Shown: positions 2,197 to 40,591 of the stretch, piece after piece
How the letters are laid out: every line of letters begins with the position of its first letter
How positions within the stretch are numbered: the first letter of the stretch is position 1
Assembly: GCA_963711945.1 (NCBI GenBank)
Contig: CAVQGB010000005.1
Coordinates: forward strand, 175,664 to 239,663
Origin: an uncultured Verrucomicrobiae bacterium
GTDB lineage: Bacteria; Verrucomicrobiota; Verrucomicrobiia; Limisphaerales; UBA11358
DNA: 64,000 nucleotides
Direction of reading: 5' to 3'
Translations under genes and position numbers: made by a program
The notes under the pieces: generated by a model
Seen by the model: the letters and a program-made list of their open reading frames with translations, nothing else
What the model was told of the DNA's origin: nothing
Databases searched by the model: none

Positions 2197-2597
2197 GCGC
2201 CCTTGGCAAGTTTATTCAGCTTTTCCACACAGGCCCGGAGCATGGGTTCGAGCTTTTCTTTGATCAGCGCAATTGCCTGTTGGGCAATGTCATGTTCATA
2301 CGTGTGGCTGAAAAGATTCCGGCTTTCCAGCGCCTCAAGCCATTCATCTACATCGGTCAGCAATTCCATCTCGAACGCCTTGTTGATGGTTTCTCGCGGA
2401 CTATTGACGGCATAACCCTCAAACGTGAGTTTGTCCTTCAAAGTCTTCCAGCAAAGCTCAAACGTGAATTCGTAGGTCTGAACCAGTCCGGCGACTTCAA
2501 GTTCGTTGTATTCGTCCTGATCGCAGGCATCTTCCAGCCGCTTGAACGCCTTGTTCAGATTTTGCAGTCGTTGTATCCAGCGGTTTTCGTTGCTCAT
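2193..2597 (-). CDS. HEPN-domain protein (HI0074-like nucleotidyltransferase substrate-binding family), putative toxin partner of the MNT domain
   Basis: The internal ATG at 2597 of ORF 2193..2822 gives [24 protein letters not shown]...[12 protein letters not shown] (Rx4H HEPN motif). The ATGA overlap with the hsdM stop (2594-2597) supports this start. The upstream part of the tracked ORF is Arg-rich out-of-frame hsdM sequence. Confidence 0.8.
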
Positions 2598-4260
2598 GCT
2601 TTTCCTGGTTTGTTGTGCTCGCTGAGAGTAACCAAATTCTTCCGGATTGTCTTTTCCAGTTTCGCCGATTCCGCGAACTGTTCTTCCAGCGTCGCGGTGA
2701 GGCGTTTCATCTTTTGCTCGAACGGTTCGCCGTCGTCTTCCATGTCTGCCGCGCCCACATAACGACCGGGCGTGAGGACGTATCCATGCGTCTGGATTTC
2801 TTCGAGCTTCACAGATTTGCAAAAGCCGGGTTCGTCCTGGTAGGGCGCGTCACTCCGTGCGCGCCGCTCACTTGCTTGCCACCAGCGGCTGGCAGGACTG
2901 CCAGCCCTACCTGGTTTCCACGCATGGTAGCAGTCGGAAATTTTGGCAATTTCCTCGGCAGTCAGTTCCCGGTGGATGCGGTCAACCAGCACGCCCATTT
3001 TCCGCGCATCAATGAAAAGGGTTTCACCGCGCCGGTCGCGGCGTTTGTGGTTCTTTTTGTCGCGGGCCAGAAACCAGAGGCAGACGGGAATTTGCGTGGT
3101 GAAAAACAACTGGCCGGGCAGCGCGACCATGCAATCCACGAGGTCGGCTTCAATCAAGGCTTTGCGAATCTCGCCTTCGTTCGAGGTCTGCGTGGACATT
3201 GAACCGTTCGCCATGACGAATCCCGCCACGCCCACGGGCGAGAGGTGATGGATGAAATGTTGAATCCAGGCGTAGTTGGCGTTGTTCACCGGCGGCATCC
3301 CGAATTTCCAGCGCACGTCCTGCCGCAGGTTTTCGCCGCCCCAATCGCTCATGTTGAACGGCGGGTTGGCGAGAATGAAATCGGCCTTGAGGTCGGGATG
3401 CAAATCCGCCCGGAAGCTGTCGGCGTTGCGCGGGCCGAGATTGGCGTCAATGCCGCGAATGGCGAGGTTCATCCGCGCCAGTTTCCAGGTGGTGTAGTTG
3501 GATTCCTGCCCGTAAACCGCGATGTCGCCCACGCGTCCGCCGTGTTCTTCCACGAATTTTTCCGATTGACACGAACATGCCGCCCGAACCGCAGCACGGA
3601 TCGAACACGCGGCCTTTGTAGGGTTCAAGCATGGCGACGAGCACCTGCACGACGCATTGCGGGGTGTAGAACTCGCCGCCGCCCTTGCCTTCCGCGCTGG
3701 CGAACTTGCCGAGAAAGTATTCATAGACGCGCCCGAGCACGTCCTTGGATTTCGCCGCCGATTCGTTGAAGCCGATGTTGCTGATGATGTCCACGAGTCC
3801 GCCGAGCCGGACTTTGTCGAGGCTGGGCCGGGCGTAATCGCGCGGCAGCACGCCTTTGAGCGTGGGATTCTCGCGCTCAATCGCGCCCATCGCGTCGTCA
3901 ATGACCTTGCCAATCTCCGGCGACTTGGCCTTGGCCTTGATGGTGTGCCAGCGGGCTTCGGGCGGCAGCCAGAAGACATTCGCGGCCATGATATTCGTCG
4001 CGGTTCTCGGCGGCTTCGGCGCGTTGCGGTTCGTCTTTGATGAACCATTCGCTCTTGGGATCGGAGAAGCCGAACAGCAGTTGCTCGCGTTTTTCCTCGA
4101 AGGCGTCGGAGATGTATTTCAGGAAGATGAGGCCGAGGCAGACGTGCTTGTATTCCGAGGCGTCCATGTGCCCGCGCATCTTGTCGGCGGCGGCCCAAAG
4201 CTGGGCTTCAAAGTCGAGAGCGGAGCCGTTGGCGGTTTTCTGACTATTTCCCTTAGCCAT
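2594..4260 (-). pseudogene. hsdM: Type I R-M DNA methyltransferase subunit HsdM, interrupted by two frameshifts (near 3990 and near 3571)
   Basis: Three frame pieces join into one Hsd[57 protein letters not shown]... comes from ORF 3898..4260. [13 protein letters not shown]...[34 protein letters not shown] comes from ORF 3447..3989. [11 protein letters not shown]...[11 protein letters not shown]... comes from ORF 2594..4198. The SAM motif DPCCGSGG and catalytic NPPF are present. Confidence 0.85.
2839..2911. repeat. GC-rich palindromic repeat element inside the hsdM 3' region (GGTAGGG...CCCTACC termini)
   Basis: GGTAGGGCGCGTCACTCCGTGCGCGCCG ... GGCTGGCAGGACTGCCAGCCCTACC. The first 28 nt are identical to 10394-10421 in lpdA. 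There are two internal hairpins. It is translated in frame as ...[10 protein letters not shown]... Confidence 0.8.
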
Positions 4261-6008: not shown

Positions 6009-6192
6009 ACTGGCTGTCGGTATTACTACAGTTCGCGTTGTGGTTTATTCATGACGTGTGCGCAATTCTTCATCTGAATAATTCGTTGAACGTCGCAAGA
6101 CGTTTCAGCGGGCTTCGCCACGTTCATTTCCGCACGGTGCTCTGCCGGTCGCGCGGAATCGATCAACCGGCAGAATCGAAAGGACAACCAAA

Positions 6193-6480
6193 ATGGTAGT
6201 CAAACTGGAAGTATTCAAGACCGTCCACAACACGTGGCCGGCCAAAAACGGAATGGCAGCGGGCGAATCATACGACCTGCTGTGCATTGATGTCAGCAAT
6301 CCACCGGAACACCGGATGGAAGAGATGCTGTTCTACCGGACAAAACCGGAAGAACGCGAAGCCCACTACGTCAACGGCACGGGCAAAGTCATCACGGTTG
6401 GCGTTGCCAAGATTCGGCACGCGGACAAGGGCGGCAAAGCTACCATCATCGGGAGCATCATCCCGGAAGCCAAAAAGTAA
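6193..6480 (+). CDS. Hypothetical protein (element cargo)
   Basis: 95-aa ORF lying 7 nt upstream of the Rep gene on the same strand. No motif recognised. Confidence 0.4.
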   Translation: MVVKLEVFKTVHNTWPAKNGMAAGESYDLLCIDVSNPPEHRMEEMLFYRTKPEEREAHYVNGTGKVITVGVAKIRHADKGGKATIIGSIIPEAKK

Positions 6481-6486
6481 AAACTT

Positions 6487-7140
6487 ATGGCTAAAAATCC
6501 TCGGATAGACAGAGACTGGCGTGATCCGATCCGCAAATCCGAGGTCGCCACAGACTTTGGCATCACACTGGCAAGAATCCAGTGGGACCTTTTTGCAACG
6601 CCGACTTTTAAGGGCAACGTCCCTCGAACAAATATTTGTTACGGCATGGCGTTTCGCTGGTTGCAAGAATTGGCCAAAGTCTGTGGCGTGCCCTATAAGC
6701 GCCTTCTCATAGCACTGCGCGGTGAAGAAGGCGAAAAGAATGGGCGTTTCCACTTCCACTGTCTGGTGGGGGGAACTGCTACGCGCAACTATCACACGCT
6801 GCAACACCAGGCTGAACATCTGTGGAAGCATCAGACAGGTGGGGCGCGTGTAGATGTTCGACAATATGACCGCTCACTGGCCGGAGCGGAATACGTTGCG
6901 AAGTGCCTTGGGGCAAACGCATACGAGCTGAACAAATACAGCTTTGCGAACACGGTGACGCTGTCTGCATCTGTTATCCGGTTGATAGCGGGTATTGATG
7001 CGAGTGGAGACAGACGCTGCGGACAGGACACATGGAGAAACGGGCTGGTGACGAAAGCGACGGGGTTTAACCAGGTGGTTCCCGCTGTGAGTAAGCTTTG
7101 CGATGAGACAGCCTCCCAGATTGCGGGCATGGCGCATTGA
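6487..7140 (+). CDS. HUH-superfamily rolling-circle replication initiator (Rep)-like protein
   Basis: Three motifs appear in the canonical order: LFATPTFKG (motif I-like), GRFHFHCLVGG (HUH motif) and AEYVAKCLG (catalytic Tyr YxxK-like motif). Confidence 0.6.
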   Translation: MAKNPRIDRDWRDPIRKSEVATDFGITLARIQWDLFATPTFKGNVPRTNICYGMAFRWLQELAKVCGVPYKRLLIALRGEEGEKNGRFHFHCLVGGTATRNYHTLQHQAEHLWKHQTGGARVDVRQYDRSLAGAEYVAKCLGANAYELNKYSFANTVTLSASVIRLIAGIDASGDRRCGQDTWRNGLVTKATGFNQVVPAVSKLCDETASQIAGMAH

Positions 7141-7395: not shown

Positions 7396-7737
7396 TTGAT
7401 GAGAGACGACCAACATCGGTTTTTGATGCTGCTGGGCCAGTTGCCGGCCCGCCTGACGGCGGAGCAGGCGGCTTGGGTGCTCAACTGCCAGCCGCATGAC
7501 GTGCCGGTGCTGGTCGCGGCGCGGCTGCTCAAGCCGTTGGGCAATCCTCAAGCCAATAGCACCAAGTTTTTCGCGACGACTGATTTGCTTGAACAAATCA
7601 AAGACCGCAATTGGCTGGTGCGGGTCTCCACCGCCATTTATCAGCACTGGCACAAACAAAATGCCCGCAAGAAAAGCCGTTTCCCGAACGGAACGGGAAA
7701 CGGCCAAACCGCGCTGCCGATGGCATCGGTTGGTTAA
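7396..7737 (+). CDS. Putative excisionase / HTH DNA-binding protein
   Basis: 113-aa ORF containing LTAEQAAWVLNCQPHDVPVLVAARLLKPLG (HTH-like). It converges on and overlaps the integrase 3' end by 4 nt. Confidence 0.45.
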   Translation: MMRDDQHRFLMLLGQLPARLTAEQAAWVLNCQPHDVPVLVAARLLKPLGNPQANSTKFFATTDLLEQIKDRNWLVRVSTAIYQHWHKQNARKKSRFPNGTGNGQTALPMASVG

Positions 7738-8768
7738 GCGGCGGAGAATTGCATCGGCACGACGTTGGAAGCCGTCGCCATTTTGCTTTCAAAATCTTCA
7801 AGGGCTGGAATCAACACCTTTGCCTTCCGCGCATAAGCCCGATGCACCGCTTTGCTATTGTGGCCCAGCGCCTCCTGCGCGAAGCGTTCGGGATAGCCGC
7901 AAGTCTTGGCGCGTTCCGCCCACGCGTAGCGGTAGGAGTGAAGCGAAACCCCGGAGACGCCGACGAGACGGCAGCGTCGGATGAACGCCTTGGCCCGGTC
8001 GGATTCCTTCCACTGGACGACTTGCGGGAACAAGCAGCCCGTCGTCGGACGCCGCTCAAGAATCTTCACGACGGCCTCGCCAATGCGGATTATGGCTTGT
8101 GTGCCTGTTTTCATACGGGCATAGGAGATTGTCCGGTCGGTCCAATCTACATCCTCGGCGCGCAACGAAGCCATGTCGGTCTGCGAGCCGCCCAAGTGCC
8201 AGAGCAGTTCGTAGAAGTCGCGCACTTCGAGGTTTCGCTCGCCGGCCATAATTTTCTGGTGTTCCTCCCAAGTGATGCCGCGCTTGTCTTTGAAGTGGAT
8301 GGCGGGCCAGCGCTTCCGGGCCAGCACCGGCCACGGCAGCCACGACATGTCGAGGGCGAAGTTTTGCACCCGGCGCAAAAAGATGTTGCTGCAAACCGTG
8401 CCAGTCTCCAGCACGCGCATGAAGTGTTCTGGGCGGGTTTCCAAGACGGGTAAACCGCGAATCGCATCGAATGCCTTGTCGCGCATGGCTGTCCGCCAGC
8501 GAATCAGGGTCGGCCCCTGTTTCAGTGTGGCCGCCTCCTCCATGACGTGCTGCCAGGTGCGGGCGGCGATCTGCGGGTCGCTGGCTGCGAGATAGGCGCG
8601 GGCGATTTGCAGGTTGATGGCGGGCTGCCTTTCCGCCTCGTTCTTGGCGTTAAGGAATCGCCCAGCCTCTGCCCGGTCACGGGTGTGGAGGCTGGATTGC
8701 TTGCCGGTGGTCGTGTCTTCGCAATAGAAGATTTCACCGCGTTTAAACAGGATGAACCGTTGTCTCAT
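7734..8768 (-). CDS. int: Tyrosine recombinase / phage-type integrase
   Basis: 344 aa. The C-terminal catalytic region is ...LHSYRYAWAERAK...ALGHNSKAVHRAYAR (H-x-x-R ... Y). It lies adjacent to the tRNA 3' end. Confidence 0.9.
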   Translation of the reverse strand: MRQRFILFKRGEIFYCEDTTTGKQSSLHTRDRAEAGRFLNAKNEAERQPAINLQIARAYLAASDPQIAARTWQHVMEEAATLKQGPTLIRWRTAMRDKAFDAIRGLPVLETRPEHFMRVLETGTVCSNIFLRRVQNFALDMSWLPWPVLARKRWPAIHFKDKRGITWEEHQKIMAGERNLEVRDFYELLWHLGGSQTDMASLRAEDVDWTDRTISYARMKTGTQAIIRIGEAVVKILERRPTTGCLFPQVVQWKESDRAKAFIRRCRLVGVSGVSLHSYRYAWAERAKTCGYPERFAQEALGHNSKAVHRAYARKAKVLIPALEDFESKMATASNVVPMQFSAA

Positions 8769-8954: not shown

Positions 8955-9029
8955 TGGAGCCAATGGCCGGGATTGAACCGGCGACCGACGGTTTACGAAA
9001 CCGTTGCTCTACCGCTGAGCTACATTGGC
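8955..9029 (-). tRNA. tRNA-Thr (anticodon CGU)
   Basis: Minus strand folded by hand: GCCAATG TA GCTC AGCGGTA GAGC A ACGGT TTCGTAA ACCGT CGGTC GCCGG TTCAATC CCGGC CATTGGC T CCA. All four stems pair, the CCA is encoded, and the anticodon loop is TT-CGT-AA. Confidence 0.9.
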
Positions 9030-9334
9030 TTGACCCGCCGTTACTCCGGCGTTTTCATGGTTGGCTGGATTTTATTGTCTGCAATTGCATTCGTGCAACA
9101 TTCCGCAAAACCGCGCGAAATCATGACAACTCAAACGCCAACCGCGCCAGTGTGTATAGCCGCACACAGCGCGCCGGTCAAGTCAACTGTGACCGATGCT
9201 TTTCGGCTTCTATTGTTGATCCTGTAAACCGACGCGCGAAGTTCGCGGTCGAATCGGAGTGTTGCGCCACCACGAACGACTCTGGCCCGCCATCGTCGAA
9301 CGCCAGCCCGTATGAGCTTTCAACCCATTTGCGG

Positions 9335-10849
9335 TTATTTTCGTTTTGGCGGGGCGTGGATGCATTCGCCGTGCAAGGCGTGCGCGGCTTCCATCCAGGC
9401 TTCGCTGAAGGTCGGGTGGGCGTGAATTGTCCGGCCCAGCTCTCGCGTGGTCAGTTCGGCGCGAATTACAGCGGCAGCCTCCGCGATGAGTTCCGTCGCG
9501 TGCGGGCCGACAGCGGCGGCACCGAGCAGTTGGTCGGTCGTGGCGTCGGCAATCCATTTCACAAACCCGGCGGTCTCGCCGGTCGCGATACCCTTGCCGA
9601 GGCCGGCAAAACGGAACTTGCCGGTCTTCACGGCGCGATTCTGCTTCTTCGCGTCGTCCTCGCTCATGCCGGCGGTGCCGACTTCCGGCGACGTGAAAAT
9701 CACATTCGGCACAATTGTGTCGTGCCGCCGCAATTTAGCGGGGCAGGCATCTTGCCTGCCATCAGACAGGCTGGAAGCCTGTCCCACTAACGCATTTTCG
9801 GCGGCGGCGATGCCCTGCGTGGTGGCGTAATGCGCGAGCTGGATTTTGCCGGTCACGTCGCCGATGGCGAATATGTTCGCGACCTGCGTGCGGCAATAAT
9901 CGTCCGCCTCGATGATCCCGCGTTCGTTCGTTTTCAACCCGGCGTTTTCCAGTTTCAAACCGTCGGTCACGGGTTTGCGGCCCACGGCGCAGAGCAGCAA
10001 TTCCGCCGTCAAAGTTTCATCTCCGAATTTGCCGCTAATGACAGTGGCGCCATCACCACCGGCGGAGATATTTTCCAGCGCCTTGCCCGTCAGCACGCGG
10101 ATGCCGAGGTTTTTCTCCAGGTGCGCGCGGACTTCGCGGCGCACGTCGGCGTCGAGCAGCAGCAGAATGTCCTTCAGCAATTCGACGATGGTGACCTTGA
10201 CGCCGAGCATCGCGGCCATGCAGGCGAGTTCGCAGCCGATGAAGCCGCCGCCGAGAACAATCATCGTGGCGGGCAATTTCTGGATGTCGAGAAACGCGCG
10301 GCTTTCCACGACGCGCTCGTGCTTCGGCAAAAAGCCGGGCATGGCCGAGGTGGAGCCGGTGGCGATGATGATTTTCTTCGCGCTGATGCGCTCGGTAGGG
10401 CGCGTCACTCCGTGCGCGCCGTTTTCCGGTGGGGCGAGGCTACCGACGAGCCGGCTCGCGGGGACGCTCGCCCCACCGCTGATTTCGATGGTATTGCGGT
10501 CAACAAAACTCGCCGTGCCTGTAAATTGTTTCACGCCGTTGGCGGTGAGCAGCGAGCCGATGCCGCCGCGCAATTGCTGGACGGCCTTGTCCTTGTTGCC
10601 AATCATTTTCGCGTAATCCACCGAGGCGTTCCTGACGGTAATGCCGAATTTTTCCGCGTGTTTGATTTTCTCGAAGGTCTCGGCGGCGGCGATGAGCGCC
10701 TTGGTGGGGATGCAGCCCCAATTCAGGCAGGCGCCACCGAGCCTTTCCTTTTCGATGATGGCGACCCTTGCACCGAGTTGAGCGGCGCGGATGGCCGCCG
10801 GGTAACCGCCGGGACCGGCGCCGATGACTGCAATATCAAATGTTTCCAT
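9335..10849 (-). CDS. lpdA: Dihydrolipoyl dehydrogenase (E3), carrying two in-frame repeat insertions
   Basis: METFDIAVIGAGPGGYPAAIRAA... (FAD motif), redox-active CLNWGCIPTK, C-terminal HAHPTFSEA. At 504 aa it is roughly 40 aa longer than a typical E3. Confidence 0.95.
   Translation of the reverse strand: METFDIAVIGAGPGGYPAAIRAAQLGARVAIIEKERLGGACLNWGCIPTKALIAAAETFEKIKHAEKFGITVRNASVDYAKMIGNKDKAVQQLRGGIGSLLTANGVKQFTGTASFVDRNTIEISGGASVPASRLVGSLAPPENGAHGVTRPTERISAKKIIIATGSTSAMPGFLPKHERVVESRAFLDIQKLPATMIVLGGGFIGCELACMAAMLGVKVTIVELLKDILLLLDADVRREVRAHLEKNLGIRVLTGKALENISAGGDGATVISGKFGDETLTAELLLCAVGRKPVTDGLKLENAGLKTNERGIIEADDYCRTQVANIFAIGDVTGKIQLAHYATTQGIAAAENALVGQASSLSDGRQDACPAKLRRHDTIVPNVIFTSPEVGTAGMSEDDAKKQNRAVKTGKFRFAGLGKGIATGETAGFVKWIADATTDQLLGAAAVGPHATELIAEAAAVIRAELTTRELGRTIHAHPTFSEAWMEAAHALHGECIHAPPKRK
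9738..9787. repeat. Palindromic repeat (two hairpins) inside lpdA
   Basis: GCGGGGCAGGCATCTTGCCTGCCATCAGACAGGCTGGAAGCCTGTCCCAC, with hairpins GGCAGGCA/TGCCTGCC and ACAGGCT/AGCCTGT. It is translated as ...VGQASSLSDGRQDACPAKL... Same family as 14358-14404. Confidence 0.8.
10394..10476. repeat. Composite palindromic repeat inside lpdA
   Basis: GGTAGGGCGCGTCACTCCGTGCGCGCCG (identical to 2839-2866) followed by GGTGGGGCGAGGCTACCGACGAGCCGGCTCGCGGGGACGCTCGCCCCACC (same family as 38738-38805). It is translated as [28 protein letters not shown]. Confidence 0.85.
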
Positions 10850-10895
10850 AAATTATACTTGTTGAAGTTCGTGCTTTATTGCAGTTCAAGAAAAA

Positions 10896-11086
10896 CTGTA
10901 GCCGTGGCGCCGCAAAACGTGACTGGGAGCGCACGCGCCTCGCGTGCCGTGGTTGACACCCCGTCAACCACCTTGGCGCGCCATCGCGCCTGTTTCAACG
11001 CGCGGTGGCGCGCGTTGCCCCGGCCGCGAAGGCGCGGTCGGATGCACGCGAGGCGCGTGCGCTCCCTATTCAGTTTGCGGCCACGG
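10896..11086. repeat. Long (~190 nt) imperfect palindromic element in the E2-E3 intergenic region
   Basis: The left arm ...CCGTGGCGCCGCAAAACGTGACTGGGAGCGCACGCGCCTCGCGTG pairs with the right arm CACGCGAGGCGCGTGCGCTCCCTATTCAGTTTGCGGCCACGG. Internal hairpins include GGTTGACACCCCGTCAACC and CAACGCGCGGTGGCGCGCGTTG. Confidence 0.8.
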
Positions 11087-11103
11087 TTTTTACTGAAATG
11101 CTC

Positions 11104-11148
11104 TAGCGTGCTTCGCGGAGAACAACCTGAAGGTTGAACTCCAACGAA
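11104..11148 (-). repeat. 45-nt conserved intergenic motif, copy 1 (immediately downstream of the E2 stop)
   Basis: TAGCGTGCTTCGCGGAGAACAACCTGAAGGTTGAACTCCAACGAA. 40/45 positions are identical to 14898-14942. It contains the perfect palindrome CAACCT-GA-AGGTTG. Confidence 0.75.
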
Positions 11149-11149
11149 C

Positions 11150-12478
11150 CTACGCCGTCAGTTTTTTCCAGAGTTCAATGTCCTCGAGTTTTTGTTTAAT
11201 GGCATTGACGAACTTAGCGCCGAGCGCGCCGTCCACGATGCGATGGTCGCACGAAAGCGTGAGTTTCATCATGTGTCGCACGACGATTTTGTCACCGCGC
11301 ACGACCGGTTGCGGCTTGATGCTCGCGACGCCCAGGACGGCACTTCCGCCGGGATTGATGATGGGGCCGAAGCTTTCCACATCCATCATGCCCAGGTTGG
11401 AGATGGTGAACGTGCCGCCGCTCAATTCGTCCGGAGTGGCCTTGCCGGTGCGCGCCTTTTCAATCAGCGTCTTCGATTGCCGGCAGAGTTCCATCAACGG
11501 CAGTTGCTCCGCCGCGCGGATGACGGGCACAACCACGCCCTGGTCCACCGTCACGGCGATGCCGAGGTTGACGTGGCTGTTCCAACGCATGACCCGGCCG
11601 TCGGTCGAGCTGTTCAGCTCGGGAAATTCCTGCAATTTCATCACCACCGCCTGGGCGATGAAATCGGTGACGGTGTAGGGCGCGCCCGCGGCCTTCAACT
11701 GGTTGCGGTAGCCGAGCAACTCCGTCATGTCCACGGAAATGGTGACATAGAAATGCGGCGTGTCGCGGAAACTCTGCGTGAGCCGTTGCGCGATGACTTG
11801 GCGCATATTGCTCATCAGCTTCGGTCGCTCGGCAATGGCGCGCTCGACGTTGGCCACGGTGATGCGACCGGAATTTTCCACCGCTTGAATCGCCAGCACG
11901 TCGAGTTTTTCCATGGCCGCGAGTTTCTTGGCGGCAGACGAGATGCGTAACTGGTCGTAGCCGTGCTGCTGCAAATAATTCCGCACGTCCTTTTCCACGA
12001 TGCGGCCTTCGGGACCTGTGCCTTGAATGCGCGCGGCGTCAATGACGGAATGTTTCGCCAGCGCCGCCGCGCGCGGACTGATGCGGAACACTGCCGGAGC
12101 TGCCGGAGCGACCGGCGCGGCAACGGGCGCCGCACCTGGGGCGGGAACCGCCGCCTGTATGATCGCTGCGCGCGCCGCTGACGCAACCGCGGATTTGGGC
12201 GCGGCGGGCGCCGGCACGGTGATGGCCGGAATCGGTTCGCCCGGTTGGCCGAGAAAACCGACCGTGCTTTGCACCGGCACGCTGACGCCCGGCGGCACGG
12301 CGATTTTCAGCAACGTGCCTTCCTCGAAACTTTCCACCTCCATGACTGATTTGTCAGTCACGACGGTGAAAAGGATGTCGCCTTTGACAACTTGCTCCCC
12401 TTCCATCTTGAGCCATTCAACGATGGCGCTTTCCTCGGTCATCTGACCGAACTTCGGCATGATGATTGGTGTGGCCAT
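11150..12478 (-). CDS. Dihydrolipoamide acyltransferase (E2) of a 2-oxoacid dehydrogenase complex
   Basis: N-terminal lipoyl domain (MATPIIMPKFGQMTEE...VVTDKSVMEVESF), Ala/Pro linker, E3-binding segment, and the catalytic motif LSCDHRIVDGA. Confidence 0.95.
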   Translation of the reverse strand: MATPIIMPKFGQMTEESAIVEWLKMEGEQVVKGDILFTVVTDKSVMEVESFEEGTLLKIAVPPGVSVPVQSTVGFLGQPGEPIPAITVPAPAAPKSAVASAARAAIIQAAVPAPGAAPVAAPVAPAAPAVFRISPRAAALAKHSVIDAARIQGTGPEGRIVEKDVRNYLQQHGYDQLRISSAAKKLAAMEKLDVLAIQAVENSGRITVANVERAIAERPKLMSNMRQVIAQRLTQSFRDTPHFYVTISVDMTELLGYRNQLKAAGAPYTVTDFIAQAVVMKLQEFPELNSSTDGRVMRWNSHVNLGIAVTVDQGVVVPVIRAAEQLPLMELCRQSKTLIEKARTGKATPDELSGGTFTISNLGMMDVESFGPIINPGGSAVLGVASIKPQPVVRGDKIVVRHMMKLTLSCDHRIVDGALGAKFVNAIKQKLEDIELWKKLTA

Positions 12479-12487
12479 GACGTTCCG

Positions 12488-14893
12488 TTAAAGGATTTTG
12501 CAGGCGGCGGCCATGAGGTCGTTGACGTTCGGGAGGAACGCTGCCTCGAGAATGTGCGATTGTGGCGCGATGCCGTTTTTGGCCCCGACGCGTTTCACGG
12601 GGGCGTCGAGATAGTCGAACACCGCGTCCGAAATCGTCGAGGCGATTTCGCCGGTGTAACTGCCGATGTGAATCGCCTGGCTGGCGACAACGCACCGGCC
12701 GGTCTTTTGCACCGAGCGCAAAATCGTGTCGAGGTCGAGCGGCACGAGCGAGCGCAGATCAATCACCTCGGCGCTGACGTTTTTCTCCGCCTTCAATTTG
12801 TCCGCCGCCTTCAGGCAGTCGTGGACGAGCGGACCCCACGTCACGAACGTGATGTCCGAGCCTTCACGTTTTACGTCGGCCACGCCGAGCGGCACGAGAT
12901 AATCTTCCGCCGGCACCGGGCCTTTCATGCCATACAAACCCTGCGATTCGATGAACATCACGGGATTGTTGTCACGAATAGCGGATTTCAACATGCCCTT
13001 CGCGTCATACGGCGTTGCGGGATAAACCACGTAGAGGCCGGGGATGTGGCAGAACATGGATTCGAGCGTCTGCGAATGCTGGCCACCGTAGCCCTTGCCC
13101 GCGCCGGCGGAAACGCGCAGCACGAGCGGCACCTCGGTCTGTGCGCCGCTCATGTAATGCCATTTCGCGGCCTGGTTGCTGATCTGGTCGGACGACATCA
13201 ACGCGAAATCGAAATACATCAACTCCATGACCGGACGCAGGCCAATCATCGCCAGGCCAACGCCCGTGCCGCAGATGCACGCCTCGGAAATCGGCGTGTT
13301 GAACACACGGTCGCGCCCGAAGGATTCCATCAATCCCTTCGTCGCCTTGAACGCGCCGCCGTAATCGGCCACGTCCTCTCCGTAAAACAGGACGCGCTGA
13401 TCGCGCTTCATTTCCTCCATCATCGCCTCGCGAATGGCGTCCTTGTAGGTGATTTCGCCGTTGACACGCTTGATTTCCGGAAGCGCATCAATGATTTCAA
13501 CGTTCGCGAATTCCGCCGGCACGGTCTCGCCCTTCGTGTCGGTGAACATGTATTTGATGACGTCCCCGGCAACCGGGTCGGCGGCGGCGGCGGCGCGCCT
13601 GGCGGCTCGGGCGTTGCGGTCGCGGACGGCAGCTTCGAGCGCGGCGAGTTCCTTCGCGGTCGAAACCTTGTTCTCCAGAATCTGCGCTTTGAATGTTTCG
13701 ATGGGATCAACGGACTTCCACGCGGCTTCCTCTTCCTTTGTGCGATATTCATTGCGCGGGTCGCTCAACGAGTGGCCCCAATAACGGTAGGTGTCGCAAT
13801 CGAGCAGCACCGGGCCTTCGCCCTTCCGGCAAATTTCCGTGGCGCGATTCACGGCATCGCGAACGGCGAGCGGGTCCATGCCGTTGACGATTTCGGCGTG
13901 CATGTTGTTGTCGGCAAAACCGGCGGCGCGGCGCGCGATGCGGCTCACGCCCATCACTTCATCGTCGGTGCGGTGCGTCATGCCGTAATGATTGTTGGTG
14001 ATGAGGAAGATCATCGGCACGCCGAACTTGCGATCGGCCAGATGGTTCGTGAATTGCGCCTGCGTGGCGTAGTTCAATGACTCCAAAACCACGCCGTTGG
14101 CGAAGGCGCCGTCGCCGGCGAAACAGCAAACCACCGCGTCCTTTTTCTGATAACGCAGCCCAACCGCTGCGCCCGTGGCAATCGGCACGCCGCCGCCGAC
14201 GATCGCGTTCGCGCCGAGATGTCCAACGGAGAAATCCGCAATGTGCATCGAGCCGCCGCGGCCTTTGCAATAGCCGTCCTCTTTTCCGAACAATTCGCAA
14301 ATCATGCGATAAACGTGTTGTTCGAGCGCGGCTTCCAGCAGTTCCTCTCTCGATACTGTGGCGGGCATCTTGCCTGCCAACAGCAGGCTGGAATCCTGCT
14401 CCACCAATCGTTTTCTCAATTGTTCGTCGCTCATTTCGCGGATGGCGACCGTGCCCTTGGCAAGGCTTTCGCCGTGGCCGCGGTGCGTGCTGGTAATTTT
14501 GTCGGCGATGTGCAGCACGGAGCACGCGCCCGCCGCCGTGCCTTCCTGCCCGACCGAGACGTGCGTCGGCCCGCGATAATTGAATTCGCGGATCGGCTCA
14601 TACGCGCCGGAGCGGAGTTTGACGATCATTTCCTCCAGTTCGCGGATCATCAGCATGTCCTCGAACAGATTCACCGCCTCCTCTCTGGTGATTTTGTTTG
14701 CGGCCAGCTCCTGTTTTAGACTGCGCTGGAAGCAGTAGGCTGAAATCTTGCCGCAGTTGATTTCGAACGGCTCGAACTTGGGCCGCATATTGCTCAAATA
14801 CGTCGCCGACTTTCTCTTATTCGGCTTTCCACCCCTCTTCTCGTCCGGCTTTTCCAGTATTGCAGTTGTCATAATATTCAAGTTGGAGATCAC
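12488..14893 (-). CDS. 2-oxoacid (pyruvate/acetoin/branched-chain type) dehydrogenase E1 component, fused alpha and beta subunits
   Basis: 801 aa. The alpha part carries the TPP motif GDGAFANGVVLESLN. The beta part reads ...YGEDVADYGGAFKATKGL...PISEACICGTGVGLA... The tracked start is GTG at 14893; ATG at 14872 (MTTAILEK) is an alternative. Confidence 0.9.
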   Translation of the reverse strand: MISNLNIMTTAILEKPDEKRGGKPNKRKSATYLSNMRPKFEPFEINCGKISAYCFQRSLKQELAANKITREEAVNLFEDMLMIRELEEMIVKLRSGAYEPIREFNYRGPTHVSVGQEGTAAGACSVLHIADKITSTHRGHGESLAKGTVAIREMSDEQLRKRLVEQDSSLLLAGKMPATVSREELLEAALEQHVYRMICELFGKEDGYCKGRGGSMHIADFSVGHLGANAIVGGGVPIATGAAVGLRYQKKDAVVCCFAGDGAFANGVVLESLNYATQAQFTNHLADRKFGVPMIFLITNNHYGMTHRTDDEVMGVSRIARRAAGFADNNMHAEIVNGMDPLAVRDAVNRATEICRKGEGPVLLDCDTYRYWGHSLSDPRNEYRTKEEEAAWKSVDPIETFKAQILENKVSTAKELAALEAAVRDRNARAARRAAAAADPVAGDVIKYMFTDTKGETVPAEFANVEIIDALPEIKRVNGEITYKDAIREAMMEEMKRDQRVLFYGEDVADYGGAFKATKGLMESFGRDRVFNTPISEACICGTGVGLAMIGLRPVMELMYFDFALMSSDQISNQAAKWHYMSGAQTEVPLVLRVSAGAGKGYGGQHSQTLESMFCHIPGLYVVYPATPYDAKGMLKSAIRDNNPVMFIESQGLYGMKGPVPAEDYLVPLGVADVKREGSDITFVTWGPLVHDCLKAADKLKAEKNVSAEVIDLRSLVPLDLDTILRSVQKTGRCVVASQAIHIGSYTGEIASTISDAVFDYLDAPVKRVGAKNGIAPQSHILEAAFLPNVNDLMAAACKIL
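14358..14404. repeat. Palindromic repeat inside the E1 gene
   Basis: GTGGCGGGCATCTTGCCTGCCAACAGCAGGCTGGAATCCTGCTCCAC. Same family as 9738-9787. It is translated in frame as VEQDSSLLLAGKMPAT. Confidence 0.8.
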
Positions 14894-14897
14894 GCTT

Positions 14898-14942
14898 TAG
14901 CGTGCTTCGCCACAGACAACCTGAAGGTTGAACTCCAACGAA
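14898..14942 (-). repeat. 45-nt conserved intergenic motif, copy 2 (immediately upstream of the E1 start)
   Basis: TAGCGTGCTTCGCCACAGACAACCTGAAGGTTGAACTCCAACGAA, 40/45 identical to copy 1. The minus-strand reading contains GGAG and the CAACCT/AGGTTG hairpin just 5' of the E1 start. Confidence 0.75.
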
Positions 14943-14958
14943 GCGCCGCGAAAATAAT

Positions 14959-15738
14959 TCACACTCTCACCACCTTGATTCCTTTCCTTGCCAGTTCCTT
15001 TGCGAACGTTTTGTCGATGAACTTGTCGGTGACGATCGCGTGGATGTGTTCCAGCCCGCCGGCACGCGCGAAGGCCACCTTGCCGGCCTTGCCGGAATCG
15101 GCGAGCAGAATCACCTGCCGCGCCTGGCTCGTCACCAGTTCCTTCGTGTAAGCCTCGCTGGGATCCGTCGTCGTGAGTCCTTCATTAAGCGTCAGCCCGA
15201 TGGTGCCCATGAACGCTTTGTCCACGTGCAGTTCCTGCAGGACAAAGCGCGTCAGCGGCCCGACCATCGTCTGGCTCAAGCGGCGCAATTCACCGCCGAT
15301 TAAAATCAACCGCGGCCCGCGCCCGGCCAGTTCGTGCGCCGCGCGCAGGGAATTGGTCACCACCGTCAAGTTCGTGCGGTCATGCAACAGCCGGGCGAGC
15401 TCCAGCACCGTGCTGCCGCCGTCCAGGTAAATCGTGTCGCCCGGCTCGACAAATTGGAGCGCCGCCCCGGCGATATGATGTTTTTCGCGAGCGGCAATCG
15501 AGGTCTTGTCGTCAAACAGCGGTTCTTCCAGCCGGCTTTCGATGCTGACCGCGCCGCCGTGGACGCGCCGGATGGCGCCGGCCTGTTCGAGCTGATCCAG
15601 GTCCCGGCGGACCGTGGCCGGGGACACCCGGAGCTGCCGGCAGATTTCCTCGATGCGCATCACGCCCTGGCCGCGAATCAATTCGCGGATGTTGTCGTGG
15701 CGCCGGTGCGCCAGATCTTTATGTCGGCCGTTCAGCAT
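14959..15738 (-). CDS. DeoR-family transcriptional regulator
   Basis: N-terminal HTH (RHDNIRELIRGQGVMRIEEICRQLRVSPATVRRDLDQLEQAGAIRRVHGGA) and a C-terminal DeoR sugar-binding domain (IYLDGGSTV...VVTNS...DKAFMG). Confidence 0.9.
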   Translation of the reverse strand: MLNGRHKDLAHRRHDNIRELIRGQGVMRIEEICRQLRVSPATVRRDLDQLEQAGAIRRVHGGAVSIESRLEEPLFDDKTSIAAREKHHIAGAALQFVEPGDTIYLDGGSTVLELARLLHDRTNLTVVTNSLRAAHELAGRGPRLILIGGELRRLSQTMVGPLTRFVLQELHVDKAFMGTIGLTLNEGLTTTDPSEAYTKELVTSQARQVILLADSGKAGKVAFARAGGLEHIHAIVTDKFIDKTFAKELARKGIKVVRV

Positions 15739-23590: not shown

Positions 23591-25387
23591 TTAAGCCATC
23601 AGGTCGTAGTCAGTGTGGCCGATGATTTTGACTTTGGCGAATTCGCCAATGGGCAATCTGCCGCGCCCGCCTTCGCCTTGCTTCGACGCGGCAAGAATGT
23701 AAATCCGGCCGTCAATGTCCGGCGCGTCGGCTTCACCGCGGGCGATTAACGTAGGGCAGGCGTCCCGCCTGCCCAATTCCCCCTGTTCGATGCTTTCTCT
23801 TTTGCCCGGCGCAGGCGGGACGCCTGCGCTACTTTCCGCCCGAATCTGTCCATGTTCCCACGATGAAACTTTCGCCTGTTGAAGCTGCTTCGCGTCAGCC
23901 CTGCCTTCGACAAGGACTTTGATTTCGCGGCCGACAAAACTTTCGGAGACAGACACGGCGACCTTGTGTTGCTCGGCCATCGCCAGTTCGCGGCGTTTTT
24001 GCTTCACCTTGTCGGGTATCTGCCCGCCCATCGCGCCGGCGCGGGTGCCGTCCTCCTTGGAATAGGCGAACACACCGAGCCGCTCGAATTTCGTCTCGCG
24101 GATGAAATCGAGCAGCGTGTTGAAGCTCGCCTCCGTCTCGCCGGGAAAACCGACGATGAACGTTGTCCGCAGCGCGATGCCCGGCACGCCGGCGCGGATT
24201 TTGCGGATGAGGTCCACGATATACTGCTGCGAGGTTTCGCGGCGCATCCGCTCGAGCATGTTCTCGTGAATGTGCTGGAGCGGCATATCCACGTAACGCG
24301 CCACCTTCTGGCAACTCGCAATCGTTTCAATCAACTCATCCGTCCAATGCGCCGGATGGGTGTAGAGCAGGCGGATCCAGAAATCGCCTTTCAACGAATT
24401 GAGTTCGCGGAGCAGCGTGCATATGGTCGTGGCATCGGCGGCCAGCGATTGGGCGGCGGCGGAAAATTTCTCCGGCGACGAAATGGCGCGCGAGTGATTG
24501 GGCCGCAAATCCAATCCGTAGTAGGTCGAGTCCTGCGAGATGAGATTGATTTCTTTCACGCCGTCGGCGATGAGCGCCTTGGCCTCGGCAACGATGTCTG
24601 CCTGCTGCCGGCTGCGATGCGAACCGCGCATCCGCGGAATGATGCAGAAGCTGCACGGATGGTTGCAGCCCTCGGCGATTTTAACATAGGCGAAATGTCG
24701 CGGCGTGAGCCGGAAGCGCGGCGTGGCGAAGTCGGGAATAAAGACGGGCCGTTGCGTGACATCGAGAATGGCGGCGCTCTGCCGAGACGCCGCTACGACG
24801 GTCTTGGTTTTGCCGAATTTACCTGTGCCCCGGATGGCATTCCCTGTTTCGTGATCGGAAATGGCACGATTATTTTCCAATTCATTCAGTCGCGCGGAGA
24901 TTTTTCCCTTCGATGTTGGGTGTTCAATGTTCGATGTTCGATGTTTTCCGCCGGTTTTTTCCGCTCGATTGGCAATGGCCTTGCCGACGATTTCACCAAC
25001 CTGCGCGACTTGATCAATGCCCATGAACGCGTCCACTTCCGGGAGCAGTTTGGGCAGCTCCTCGCGAAACCGCTGCGGCAGGCATCCGGAAACGATGACG
25101 GCCTGGCCGCGATTGGCCGCCTCGCGCAATTCAACCGATTCCAAAATCGTGTCCACGCTCTCCTCCTGCGCGGAGTCAATGAAGGAGCAGGTGTTGACGA
25201 TGACGGCGTCAGCCTGCGCGGCGTCGTTGGTGATTTCGACGCCGGATTTCAGGAGGGTGCCGAGCATGATTTCGGCGTCCACGAGGTTTTTGGCGCAGCC
25301 GAGCGAAATCAAGCCGACGCGCAAGTGATCCTGCCCTCCGGTCGTTGGCCCGGCGGGCGGGCGTTCATTGGATTTTTTCCCTGTCAT
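23591..25387 (-). CDS. rimO: Ribosomal protein S12 methylthiotransferase RimO, with two internal repeat-derived insertions
   Basis: MTTase N-domain LISLGCAKNLVDAE...VNTCSFI, radical-SAM motif EGCNHPCSFCIIP, and a C-terminal TRAM region. The start is chosen at MTGKKSNE (25387). Confidence 0.9.
   Translation of the reverse strand: MTGKKSNERPPAGPTTGGQDHLRVGLISLGCAKNLVDAEIMLGTLLKSGVEITNDAAQADAVIVNTCSFIDSAQEESVDTILESVELREAANRGQAVIVSGCLPQRFREELPKLLPEVDAFMGIDQVAQVGEIVGKAIANRAEKTGGKHRTSNIEHPTSKGKISARLNELENNRAISDHETGNAIRGTGKFGKTKTVVAASRQSAAILDVTQRPVFIPDFATPRFRLTPRHFAYVKIAEGCNHPCSFCIIPRMRGSHRSRQQADIVAEAKALIADGVKEINLISQDSTYYGLDLRPNHSRAISSPEKFSAAAQSLAADATTICTLLRELNSLKGDFWIRLLYTHPAHWTDELIETIASCQKVARYVDMPLQHIHENMLERMRRETSQQYIVDLIRKIRAGVPGIALRTTFIVGFPGETEASFNTLLDFIRETKFERLGVFAYSKEDGTRAGAMGGQIPDKVKQKRRELAMAEQHKVAVSVSESFVGREIKVLVEGRADAKQLQQAKVSSWEHGQIRAESSAGVPPAPGKRESIEQGELGRRDACPTLIARGEADAPDIDGRIYILAASKQGEGGRGRLPIGEFAKVKIIGHTDYDLMA
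23751..23832. repeat. Inverted pair of ~24-nt hairpin repeats inside the rimO 3' region
   Basis: GTAGGGCAGGCGTCCCGCCTGCCC ...34 nt... GGCGCAGGCGGGACGCCTGCGCTAC. It is translated as ...SAGVPPAPGKRESIEQGELGRRDACPT... Confidence 0.8.
24909..24943. repeat. Heptanucleotide tandem repeat (TTCGATG-like, 5 units) inside rimO
   Basis: TTCGATG TTGGGTG TTCAATG TTCGATG TTCGATG. It is translated (minus strand) as ...HRTSNIEHPTSKG... Confidence 0.8.
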
Positions 25388-25497
25388 AGGCGGGAAATGG
25401 TAACGAGGATTTGAACTGAAGCAATCTTGTGGATGGGGGGATGGCGTGCCGAGTTCCAAAGGCATGGGCCGCCGACACGGCGCCCTTCCCCCAAGGT

Positions 25498-38498: not shown

Positions 38499-38737
38499 GG
38501 CTTACTTCATCGCCCGGGCGATGCTGTTCCACCAGGCGTCGTGCAAGTTCGGTGAGCGGAGCGGAGAATTCGCCTGCTGGCGGTTTTCACCGTCAGCTTG
38601 TCGCCGCCGACCTTGCCGATTTGCACCGCCGGCACGCCCATCAGTTTGGCGCGTTCCACGACTTTCACCGCGTCGAGCGGCTTTGCAACTGATGACGATG
38701 CGCGATTGCGTTTCGCCGAACAGCAGCGCATCCAATC

Positions 38738-38805
38738 GGTGGGGCGAGGCTCCTGACGAGCCGTCGTCCGCCTGCCCATCGGATCGCGAGGACGCTCGCC
38801 CCACC
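38738..38805. repeat. Palindromic repeat (GGTGGGGCGAGGCT...GACGCTCGCCCCACC family) inside purL
   Basis: GGTGGGGCGAGGCTCCTGACGAGCCGTCGTCCGCCTGCCCATCGGATCGCGAGGACGCTCGCCCCACC. Its termini are identical to the copy at 10428-10476. It is translated as SVGRASSRSDGQADDGSSGASPHR. Confidence 0.8.
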
Positions 38806-40457
38806 GATGACAAATCAATCGTCGCGCCAATCAGCCGCGGCGTCTCGCGGGCGACGAGCTGGCTGATGCAGCTTTCGGCCAGGCACACCGCCAGGCCGCC
38901 TTCGCTGCAATCATGCGCGCTTTTCACCACAGCCGGATTGAATCAAGCCGAGCAGCGTCGTGTGCAAGGTTCTTCGCCTGTTTCCAGATCGCAGCGCGGC
39001 GGCGTGCCGGTTTTCTTTCCGTGAATCGCCTGCAAATACGCCGAGCCGCCCAGACCGAGAATCGGGTCGGCTTTGTCCACGATTTCGCCGAGCAAAATGA
39101 TCGCGTCGCCCTCGTCCTTGAACCATTGCGTCGTGACGTGCTCCGGTTTTTCAATCAGGCCCACCACCACCACCGTCGGCGTCGGGTCAATCGGGCCGTT
39201 CGGGCTTTGGTTGTAGAGCGAGCAATTGCCGCCGGTGACCGGCGCGTTGAACGCCCGGCAAGCCTCGGCCAGTCCGCGCACGGATTCCTTGATTTGCCAG
39301 AACAACTCCGGCTTCATCGGGCTGGGCATGTTGAGATTGTCGGTCGTGCCCAGCGGCACCGCGCCGGAACAGGCCAGGTTGCGGCACGCCTCGGCCACCA
39401 CAATCTTCGCGCCTTCGTAGGGATCGAGATAAACGTAAGTGCCGTTGCCGTCCGACGTGAGGGCGATGAGTTTTTCGGGCGTGGATTTTGCCGCCGGCTA
39501 ATTCGGGCAGCGAATCGGTCTTGATGCGCAGCACCGCCGCGTCGCTGCCGGGACAAACCACCGAGCCGTCGCGCACCATGTGGTCGTATTGGCGGTAAAC
39601 CCAGTTCTTCGACGCGATGGTCGGCCACGCGAGCAGCTTCTTCAAATCGCCAGCGGCGATCTTGCGTGTCGGCGATTCCATCCAGCCGGAACGCGCGGAC
39701 TTCCTTCAAATACTCCGGCTCGCTGCGCCTCGCGCTGGTAAATCGGCGATTCGTCGGCAATTTTCTTCGCCGGAATGTCGGCGACAATTTTTCCGCCGTG
39801 GCGCACGACCATCCGGCCCGTGTCGGTGACGAATGCCGATTTCCGACCACGGCAAATCCCATTTGTCGAAAATCCGCTTCACTTCCTCCTCGCGGCCTTT
39901 GTGGACGATGATGAGCATGCGCTCCTGCGATTCGCTCAGCATGATTTCGTAGCTGGTCATGTTCGGCGCGCGCTGCGGCACCTTGTCCAGTTCGATTTCG
40001 ATGCCCGTGCCGGCGCGCGCGGCCGTTTCGCAGGTGGAGCAGGTCAAGCCCGCCGCGCCCATGTCCTGAATGCCCGCGACCGCGCCGGTGGCGAGCAATT
40101 CGAGGCAGGCTTCGCAGACGAGTTTTTCCATGAACGGATCGCCCACCTGCACCGCGCCGCGCTGTTGCTCGGCGGATTCCTCGGTCAAATCCTGCGACGC
40201 AAACGCCGCGCCCGCCAGGCCGTCGCGACCCGTGGCCGGGCCGACGTAGAAAACCGGATTGCCGATGCCCTTGGCCGCGCCGCGCGCGATTTGTTCGTGG
40301 CGCAGCACGCCGAGGCAGAAGGCGTTCACGAGCGGATTGCCTTCGTAGGATTTGTCGAAATAAACCTCGCCCGCGATGGTCGGGATGCCGAAGCAATTGC
40401 CGTAATGCGCGATGCCCGCCACGACGCCGGCAAACAGGCGGCGGTTGTTCTGAATCT

Positions 40458-40591
40458 GGGGAGCACACGCGCCCTCGCGTGTGGCCGACAACGCCCCGTC
40501 GTCGGCACAATGCCGCCACCGCGCGTTGCGTCTCGCGCGTGGGCGCGCTCGGCGCGGTTGATGAGGCGTCAACCGCCACAGCCGGGTCGGC
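40458..40591. repeat. ~134-nt palindromic element inside purL (related to the 10896-11086 element)
   Basis: GGGGAGCACACGCGCCCTCGCGTG...GGCTGTGCTCCCC. Compare GGGAGCGCACGCGCCTCGCGTG in the intergenic element. It lies between the conserved PurL segments SLRFGPI and [13 protein letters not shown], and the reading frame changes across it. Confidence 0.7.

Follow-up and report, generated by a model that had tools for sequence, protein, structure and literature searches.

In-frame REP-type repeats inside the dihydrolipoyl dehydrogenase gene of an uncultured Verrucomicrobiae bacterium

Two REP-type repeats inserted in frame in lpdA

The lpdA gene in a stretch of 64,000 nucleotides from an uncultured Verrucomicrobiae bacterium (contig CAVQGB010000005.1, positions 175,664 to 239,663; hereafter the window, from whose first letter positions are counted) is interrupted by two segments that leave its reading frame intact. 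Judged by sequence, both inserts are repeats of the repetitive extragenic palindromic (REP) type with GTAG or GTGG heads; the one at site B is a clean 'CAGGC' doublet, and the one at site A is a layered composite. It is likely that they are selfish elements, probably moved by REP-associated tyrosine transposases (RAYT), which survive only where they stay in frame, contain no stop codon and fall in permissive loops. The features of the gene are as follows, with L numbers denoting loci from other genomes.

9335..10849, minus strand: lpdA, dihydrolipoyl dehydrogenase (E3), from the open reading frame (ORF), PDB and Pfam matches, dN/dS (ratio of nonsynonymous to synonymous substitution rates) and gene order
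9736..9789, minus strand: site B, REP doublet, from hairpins, DNA alignment (empty in L002-L006, filled in L001), family consensus and RNA fold
10395-10477: site A composite, net gain of 27 codons relative to empty orthologues
10428..10477, minus strand: site A part 1, palindrome GGTGGGGCGAG…CTCGCCCCACC, encoding GGASVPASRLVGSLAPP, from the inverted repeat
10395..10420, plus strand: site A part 2, single GTAGGG-headed REP GTAGGGCGCGTCACTCCGTGCGCGCC, encoding GAHGVTRPT on the gene strand

The lpdA ORF is intact and of full length (504 aa). Its best matches of solved structure in a HMMER search against PDB are E3 components (2eq6, E=5e-90; 1ebd, 1e-89), and Pfam assigns the domains Pyr_redox_2 and, from residue 380, Pyr_redox_dim. 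Direct reading of the translation reveals GAGPGG, the redox-active CLNWGC, GGGFIG and HAHPTFSE. The two domains, the CxxxxC disulfide, the two GxGxxG motifs and the C-terminal HxxxxE that define a dihydrolipoyl dehydrogenase are all present, and the predicted product is assigned as E3, in agreement with an earlier note on this DNA, which had described a 504-aa E3 with all its catalytic motifs. The closest homologues are proteins from Verrucomicrobiota metagenome-assembled genomes (MAGs) of 459-485 aa that are 75-86% identical; an exact-protein look-up of the window E3 found none on record. Comparison with six orthologues gives a dN/dS of 0.13-0.18 at a synonymous distance (dS) of 0.36-0.47, which points to purifying selection on the gene, and the gene order DeoR-E1-E2-E3 is conserved in orthologous loci. 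A paralogue search, suggested by the earlier note as a check on the whole genome and confined here to the 64-kb window, found no second E3 gene there. The enzyme is probably functional despite its inserts.

Both segments are foreign to the E3 family, as had been proposed from the letters alone, and their net gains of 15 codons (site B) and 27 codons (site A) bear out that their lengths correspond to whole codons. The HMMER alignments to the E3s in PDB show gaps at lpdA residues ~126-152 and ~357-372, the positions noted for the inserts. In a diverse set of 126 E3s, one representative from each of the clusters formed at 50% identity, the stretch at site A measures 9-16 aa in 121 proteins and that at site B 10-14 aa in 121, compared with 36 and 26 aa, respectively, in the window. 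An alignment of 121 orthologues, the check that the earlier note had asked for, leads to the same result: the segments are absent from most orthologues, and the reading that they are conserved family features is rejected.

The site B doublet

On the gene strand, site B reads TAGTGGGA-CAGGCTTCCAGCCTG-TCTGATGG-CAGGCAAGATGCCTG-CCCCGCTA, which corresponds to two hairpins between GTGG…C(G/A)CTA feet. Perfect 8-bp hairpins lie at 9742-9760 and 9765-9783, and the predicted RNA fold has a free energy of -38.1 kcal/mol (z -5.4). The element encodes LVGQASSLSDGRQDACPA in place of 'VQT', with a net gain of 45 nt. The segment outlined earlier was right in that the double hairpin encodes an insert, but its trailing 'KLRR' is native, as the orthologues read QTKLRK.

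Of the 121 aligned orthologues, 119 have an empty site B; the window and one further protein (P0001) carry the filling. The DNA alignment of the retrieved orthologous loci shows identical site B junctions in the window and in L001. The stems of the two copies differ by compensatory pairs, GACAGG/CCTGTC versus GGCAGG/CCTGCC, which are swapped between the two hairpins. The left junction, GCCGAAAAYGCGTTAGTGGG, had no match in a metagenome scan; since L001 carries this junction, the collection scanned lacks the relevant contigs.

The site A composite and its turnover

Site A is composed, in gene-strand order, of the full GGTGGGGCGAG…CTCGCCCCACC palindrome, the sequence GGAAAAC (GTTTTCC at 10421-10427 on the forward strand) and one GTAGGG REP. 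The palindrome has arms of 29 nt (10427-10478), and the RNA fold of the site has a free energy of -53.9 kcal/mol (z -3.6). The earlier note correctly took this segment as encoded by repeats, but its first part, 'GGASVPASR', is a half-element of older date that ~30 orthologues share. The first arm of part 1, GGTGGGGCGAGCGTCCCCGCGAGCCGG, occurs alone in the orthologues L001 and L002, and L006 also has the first arm only. Site A is empty in L003, holds a 57-nt GTAGGG-hairpin-GAC-hairpin-CCCTAC doublet in L005 and carries a CAGGC doublet in L004.

In the protein alignment, site A is found in six states. It is empty or only natively variable ('EVG-ERISAK') in 34 of the 121 orthologues, reads 'GGASVPASR' in 30 and 'GGPIINQIFGASVPASR' in 40, contains a 19-residue filling or longer variants of it in 10, and reads 'QASSL…RQDAC…', the product of the site B family, in 6; the filling of the window itself (28 residues) is unique among the 121. 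Five or more distinct repeat-derived fillings are represented, and a rough neighbour-joining tree requires no fewer than 36 changes of state, which implies fast turnover or recombination between alleles.

Further copies of the part 1 palindrome are found at 38735-38808 in the window, in an intergenic position in L001, and in L118. On L129, an unrelated metagenome contig, positions 332-430 consist of a GTAGGG REP, a spacer and a GGTGGGG palindrome, located between genes upstream of a panB-like gene. Because this is the same composite as at site A, the combination of half REP and palindrome may travel as a unit.

Predicted placement of the inserts in the E3 fold

Site A is located between the predicted beta-strands 120-124 and 153-162, at the turn of a beta-hairpin of the flavin adenine dinucleotide (FAD) domain. 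Site B comes after a long helix, whose end is near residue 358, and before the Pyr_redox_dim dimerisation domain. Both are positions at which a few distant E3s of the 126-representative set vary in length. AlphaFold2 was run twice, with alignments of 30 and 55 sequences; the mean predicted local distance difference test (pLDDT) values of 53 and 51 were too low for surface mapping, and only the strand-turn-strand placement was used. The site A insert has a pLDDT of ~30. On the basis of the 1ebd/2eq6 alignment, this placement and the length variation in distant E3s, we infer that the inserts lie in surface or otherwise permissive loops, and the poor quality of both models keeps the surface position at that level. 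Tryptic peptides predicted to span the insert junctions are …AAENALVGQASSLSDGR, QDACPAK, NTIEISGGASVPASR and one of 21 residues.

Repeat families in the window and in other genomes

The insert sequences recur in the window, each repeat family with two copies, where shuffled sequences lead to an expectation of 0.00-0.13 matches. Positions 14360-14378 match the site B hairpin, 38738-38754 match the site A palindrome, and 2840-2865 repeat a 26-mer from site A exactly. All of these lie inside coding sequence:

14356..14406, minus strand: copy of the site B family in the E1 gene (12488-14893, minus strand), in frame, RNA fold z -3.2
2840..2910, minus strand: GTAGGG…CCCTAC REP doublet in an N-6 DNA methylase (HsdM-like) ORF (2594-4198), encoding 24 residues, from ORF reading only
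23751..23832, minus strand: a further REP doublet, GTAGGGCAGGCGTCCCGCCTGCCC … GCAGGCGGGACGCCTGCGCTAC, in a RimO-like ORF (23591-25465), from ORF reading only
38735..38808, minus strand: GGTGGGG palindrome with a longer centre in the C-terminal part (AIRS_C) of a PurL-like gene, in frame, the gene as a whole being frameshifted

In the E1 gene, to which Pfam assigns E1_dh, Transket_pyr and Transketolase_C, the copy encodes VEQDSSLLLAGKMPATVS in place of VPNCKATK, with a net gain of 11 codons, and is absent from four orthologues in a protein alignment. The copies in the HsdM-, RimO- and PurL-like genes are placed in frame by ORF reading; the HsdM-like ORF matches Pfam N6_Mtase over 279 of its residues and 249 positions of the profile. 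A strict census of 'GTRG plus perfect hairpin' counts 16 units in the window versus 4-9 in shuffled sequences, a weak signal because real copies have imperfect stems. Rfam, searched at a permissive threshold over 9300-15000, returned nothing at the inserts. The RimO-like protein has a second long low-complexity insert at residues ~170-235 ('KTGGKHRTSNIEHPTSKGKISARLNELENN…'), which seems to derive from a different repeat family.

A genome scan with the site B core (CAGGCTTCCAGCCTG, 5-14 arbitrary nucleotides, CAGGCAAGATGCCTG) gave at least 120 stretches with 108 distinct copies. The matches listed come from Verrucomicrobiota, Planctomycetota, Kiritimatiellae, Desulfobacterota, Methylomirabilota, Nitrospirota, Acidobacteria, Schekmanbacteria, Limnocylindrales and others. 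The 30-nt core of the CAGGC doublet is identical across many phyla, among them Verrucomicrobiota, Planctomycetota, Kiritimatiellota, Desulfobacterota, Methylomirabilota, Nitrospirota, Acidobacteriota and Chloroflexota. The consensus of the 108 copies is GTRG-NN-CAGGCTTCCAGCCTG…CAGGCAAGATGCCTG-NN-CYAC, a hairpin-spacer-hairpin arrangement with GTAG (37), GTGG (37) or GGAG (12) as the head and CCAC (44) or CTAC (33) as the tail. Outside the fixed core, both stem positions show full complementarity in 75-80% of the copies and are occupied by at least six different dinucleotides. The doublet is present on many contigs of single MAGs, as in the Verrucomicrobiia SMAG_U5103 and the Planctomycetaceae SRP098377_co2_212. 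The CAGGC doublets of Desulfobacterota carry their own GGGAGCA…TGCTCCC feet, and such lineage-specific feet argue against contamination of the bins. In Desulfobacterota loci (L009, L017, L046, L053, L056, L057 and others) outer CCCCAACCCC…GGGGTTGGGG palindromes enclose the doublet in a compound element.

At least 120 metagenome stretches contain the exact 26-mer of the GTAGGG REP, in most cases with a …CCCTAC partner at a distance of 15-30 nt. The doublet of the site B family lies in frame in RecG, LigA, MutL and CCA/poly(A) polymerase genes of other genomes. The site B family is depleted in long open frames, which contain 17-31% of the elements compared with 42-60% of random positions, the pattern expected under selective filtering. 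Intragenic copies have the orientation of the host ORF in ~21 cases and the opposite one in ~17, numbers that reveal no usable bias given the noisy ORF calls.

REP identity and association with RAYT genes

REPs, and the bacterial interspersed mosaic elements (BIMEs) and REP doublets forming hairpins (REPINs) that they build, are defined by a GT[AG]G foot and a hairpin, and occur in inverted doublets. Classical REPs are extragenic both by name and by statistics. At both lpdA sites we find hairpins of the size range of REPs, imperfect palindromes of 20-40 nt, with folds of z -3.2 to -5.4 when the E1 copy is included. The 5' foot is GT[AG]G in each case (TTAGTGGGACAGG… at site B; GTAGGGCGCG… and GGTGGGGCGAG… at site A), and site B is an inverted doublet with its heads outward, as is the family consensus. 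Unlike classical REPs, the copies studied here are intragenic, inside lpdA, E1 and other ORFs; intragenic REPs are, nevertheless, a documented exception to the extragenic habit (PMC3733652).

Two other types of element were considered. A miniature inverted-repeat transposable element dependent on a DDE transposase is rejected, as the elements have no terminal inverted repeats of 15-30 bp, only the short GTRG/CYAC feet, and the alignment of filled and empty sites shows no target-site duplication. An intein or mini-intein was dropped in view of the length of the inserts, only 15-27 aa; no search for intein motifs was made.

In other genomes, members of both families adjoin RAYT genes. A RAYT sequence served as a probe only; its hits are independently recognised by Pfam as Y1_Tnp above the curated threshold. 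The RAYT gene of L051 (Kiritimatiellae) has a CAGGC doublet on either side, those of L067 (Methylomirabilota) and L083 (Nitrospiraceae) are bounded by hairpins of the CAGGC family, and the Y1_Tnp genes of L185 and L139 adjoin REPs of the GTAGGG family. The RAYT family comprises more than 4000 homologues (E<=1e-10), many of which, among those listed, were named 'REP element-mobilizing transposase RayT' by the Joint Genome Institute (JGI); the list includes proteins of Opitutales and Luteolibacter (Verrucomicrobia). The REP-coded peptides GFQP, GKMP, GRMP, GILP or QASSL are found at the ends of 29 of the 120 best RAYT homologues and at none in shuffled controls.

Some of these RAYT genes are themselves placed inside other ORFs. 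On L067 (6524-7882, minus strand), the RAYT lies in frame within an ORF that Pfam identifies as a DUF1156 methylase, and on L083 (~6190-6700, minus strand) within an ORF that is similar by eye to this methylase; both are bounded by REP-coded peptides. The RAYT of L083 itself contains an in-frame REP ('DDRQDACPT').

Origin and persistence of the inserts

RAYT enzymes recognise a hairpin together with a GT[AG]G head. By analogy, the REPs in lpdA were probably copied through single-stranded DNA by RAYT-type transposases of the Y1 (HUH) class. An insertion in lpdA would persist only if the frame was kept, no stop codon was introduced and the fold tolerated the extra residues, as would be possible at the beta-hairpin turn of the FAD domain (site A) and in the linker ahead of the dimerisation domain (site B). 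Since only tolerated insertions would persist, the enzyme would stay functional. The insert peptides are most likely neutral passengers, and the repeated turnover at site A would fit re-targeting of a resident REP or the exchange of alleles. We found no evidence for a function of the inserts. The earlier note had offered two alternatives: filtering of the inserts into surface loops, or a role at the RNA or protein level. The first is favoured by the variable presence of the inserts in close orthologues, the length variation in distant E3s, the placement of the sites and the dN/dS of lpdA; the second is unsupported. The REP type of the elements, the insert in the E1 gene and the published precedent in Verrucomicrobia go beyond what that note contained.

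Several observations weigh against a purely selfish, RAYT-driven origin. The compensatory differences between the site B stems of the window and L001 could mean that selection acts on the structure, which would oppose pure neutrality; conversion from other copies or independent insertions could also have produced them. The filling of site B takes the place of ~12 nt of the empty site instead of simply interrupting it, and the DNA alignment defines neither a target-site duplication nor a clean junction between empty and filled states at site A or B. L001, which carries site B, is not the nearest relative by dS, and simple vertical inheritance of one insertion is thus insufficient. The surface-loop assignment draws on alignment with PDB sequences and on two AlphaFold models of low confidence. 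Finally, no RAYT gene is found in the 64-kb window, the part of the genome that was searched, so RAYT mobilisation in the source genome is deduced from REPtrons in other genomes.

An origin without RAYT transposition is unlikely. The elements could have arrived by recombination or gene conversion with genomic copies or population alleles, or by hairpin-templated duplication at a fragile site. Such processes would suit the layering of site A, with a half-element in many orthologues and a full palindrome plus half REP in the window, as well as the recurrence of identical fillings far apart in the E3 tree, with its 36 or more changes of state, the intergenic occurrence of the same composite in L129 and the missing target-site duplication or clean junction. 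However, the GT[AG]G heads are typical of RAYT substrates and the elements flank RAYT genes elsewhere; site B and the E1 insert each consist of one whole doublet, with no other repeats in the surrounding sequence, and empty orthologous sites show no resident homology from which conversion could be seeded.

Co-option of the inserts is improbable as well. The extra loops might alter E3, for example in its docking to the subunit-binding domain of E2 near site B, or the strong hairpins in the mRNA might modulate how the operon is translated or how stable its mRNA is. The maintenance of the site B stems by compensatory changes would be expected under this explanation, and it is also in line with the very stable folds at both sites, with the presence of the 'GGASVPASR' half-element in ~70 of the 121 orthologues, either alone or within a longer 'GPIINQIF…' state, and with the inserts in both E1 and E3 of one operon. 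By contrast, the presence and identity of the fillings vary freely in close orthologues, to the point that site A is empty in 34 and site B in 119 of the 121, the same elements occur in unrelated genes and intergenic DNA, and no Rfam family matches them. Complementarity can, moreover, persist without selection, through conversion from other copies or hairpin-templated repair.

That lpdA is decaying or unexpressed while another intact lpdA is active is very unlikely: a PurL-like gene in the window, broken by at least five frameshifts, demonstrates that decay or indel errors occur in this DNA, but lpdA has a full-length ORF with all motifs, a low dN/dS at dS ~0.4, a conserved DeoR-E1-E2-E3 operon and no paralogue in the window. 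There is next to no chance that the inserts are an artefact of assembly or sequencing, with repeats mis-joined into lpdA; repeats often confuse assemblers and the frameshifts elsewhere in the window hint at sequence errors, but site B has the same junctions in the independent JGI contig L001, dozens of independently assembled orthologues contain repeat-derived fillings at site A, and the reading frame is exactly kept.

We tentatively raise a joint reading that goes further than published work and appears possible though rather doubtful, in which the beta-turn at site A is a true insertion hotspot and the CAGGC doublet forms with RAYT a horizontally spreading unit. The hotspot would be driven by the targeting of the element (REP into REP) or by seamless excision and re-insertion, and not by selection on the loop alone. 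The five or more REP-type fillings among the 121 orthologues and their many changes of state on the rough tree could reflect this, and a published insert in Opitutus terrae may share the position. The spreading unit would account for the identical 30-nt core across phyla and even for the RAYT genes in frame inside DUF1156 methylase ORFs.

Comparison with known systems

In-frame intragenic REPs have already been published for Verrucomicrobia, so that both the class of mechanism and the host phylum have a precedent. Di Nocera, De Gregorio and Rocco (2013, BMC Genomics 14:522; PMC3733652) defined the GTAG-tagged REPs and found them in the superphylum of Planctomycetes, Verrucomicrobia and Chlamydiae. 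Intragenic GTAG REPs were most numerous in the verrucomicrobium Opitutus terrae, where 2-oxo acid dehydrogenase genes are among the hosts; dimers encoding 20-30 aa made up over half of the intragenic inserts, and some genes had two (PMC3733652). Additional file 3 of that paper contains the E2 gene Oter_4191 and, adjacent to it, Oter_4192, whose 481 aa include an insert at residues 127-142; PurL appears there twice, and an N-6 DNA methylase is also among the entries (PMC3733652). Its length and the position of its insert suggest that Oter_4192 may be an E3 with an insert at site A; a chimeric query of E3 flanks and the published REP peptide, aimed at the Oter_4192 protein, gave no candidates.

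The elements described here resemble the GTAG REPs of O. terrae in being stem-loops with a GTAG or GTGG head, the latter found in most O. terrae GTAG-20 units, in occurring often as inverted dimers that add ~15-30 aa in frame to known genes, sometimes two per gene, and in the kinds of host gene. They differ in their stem sequences, with peptides that read QASSL, RQDACP, GKMP and GAHGVTRPT in the window families and VAGVADPG, GTGVPPV and HGRDARAT in O. terrae. The turnover of one codon position across many orthologues is seen here and is not described in PMC3733652.

An older precedent is provided by the Rickettsia palindromic elements (RPEs), which are likewise selfish palindromes in frame within genes that stay functional, as lpdA appears to by its intact ORF and its dN/dS. 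RPE-1 is reportedly ~100-150 bp long, and the RPE families are said to be specific to Rickettsia; we know of no dedicated transposase for RPEs. Work by Ogata and colleagues from 2000 and 2002 is said to have located the insertion sites of RPEs at positions compatible with the protein fold. Unlike RPEs, the elements of this study, 26-54 nt in size and with GTAG/GTGG heads, show a link to RAYT genes and reside in a host that its E3 homologues mark as Verrucomicrobiota. RPE-4 and RPE-6 were placed in the CGTC class and not in the GTAG class (PMC3733652). The lpdA elements work like RPEs but are not members of them.

As in REP/REPIN-RAYT systems and the BIMEs of E. coli (Nunvar 2010; Bertels & Rainey 2011), a GT[AG]G head is followed by a hairpin, and the inverted doublets can be folded either into a pair of small hairpins or into a single long hairpin, as in REPINs and BIMEs. 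As in REPtrons, RAYT genes are flanked by their own REPs, here in other genomes. The patchy distribution is compatible with horizontal transfer, a property shared with RAYT subclasses and REPtrons (Quentin 2018, PMC6006769). For a 30-nt core identical across phyla, such as that of the CAGGC doublet, we found no description among REP/REPIN-RAYT systems.

These results bear on annotation, in that 'odd loops' of 15-30 aa in proteins of Verrucomicrobiota and Planctomycetota are to be taken as REP-derived and not as lineage-specific functional motifs; REP inserts also inflate the variation in protein length and split alignments to hidden Markov models in two. The lpdA gene represents a clean natural experiment on the amount and place of foreign sequence that a central metabolic enzyme tolerates. 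If the hotspot and the cross-phylum spread were true, they would constitute a tractable system for target choice by RAYT and for the horizontal spread of REPs.

Neighbouring features of the locus

The PurL-like (FGAM synthase II) gene, 38500-41030 on the minus strand, passes through frames 2>0>1>2>0>1, with its conserved motifs kept despite the frameshifts, and is either a young pseudogene or the product of local indel errors of the assembly. A palindromic composite of ~170 nt lies within it at ~40450-40620. The space between E2 and lpdA (10900-11090) is occupied by a composite of ~190 nt that resembles this insert, GGGAGCGCACGCGCC…GGCGCGTGCGCTCCC with an inner hairpin GTGGTTGAC…GTCAACCAC; its only Rfam match is sub-threshold, isrK at 26 bits versus a gathering score of 50.

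A direct repeat of 56 nt (84% identical; 11100-11155 and 14894-14949) contains a small palindrome, CAACCTGAAGGTTG. One copy overlaps the stop codon of E2, upstream of lpdA, and the other is located just downstream of the stop codon of the DeoR-like gene, upstream of E1. The repeat may serve both intergenic spaces as a regulatory or terminator module.

Directly downstream of lpdA are a tRNA-Thr (CGT) gene (8955-9029, minus strand) and a tyrosine-integrase-like ORF (7734-8768, minus strand), and the downstream neighbours of lpdA differ in the orthologous loci that could be read (L001, L002, L004-L006); together, these features suggest an element integrated at the tRNA. Between E2 and lpdA, L001 (657-1540) and L005 (5646-6530) hold a nucleotidyltransferase/HEPN toxin-antitoxin pair together with a duplicate of the E2 C-terminus of 40-48 aa, which indicates that the E2-E3 junction is also an insertion site.

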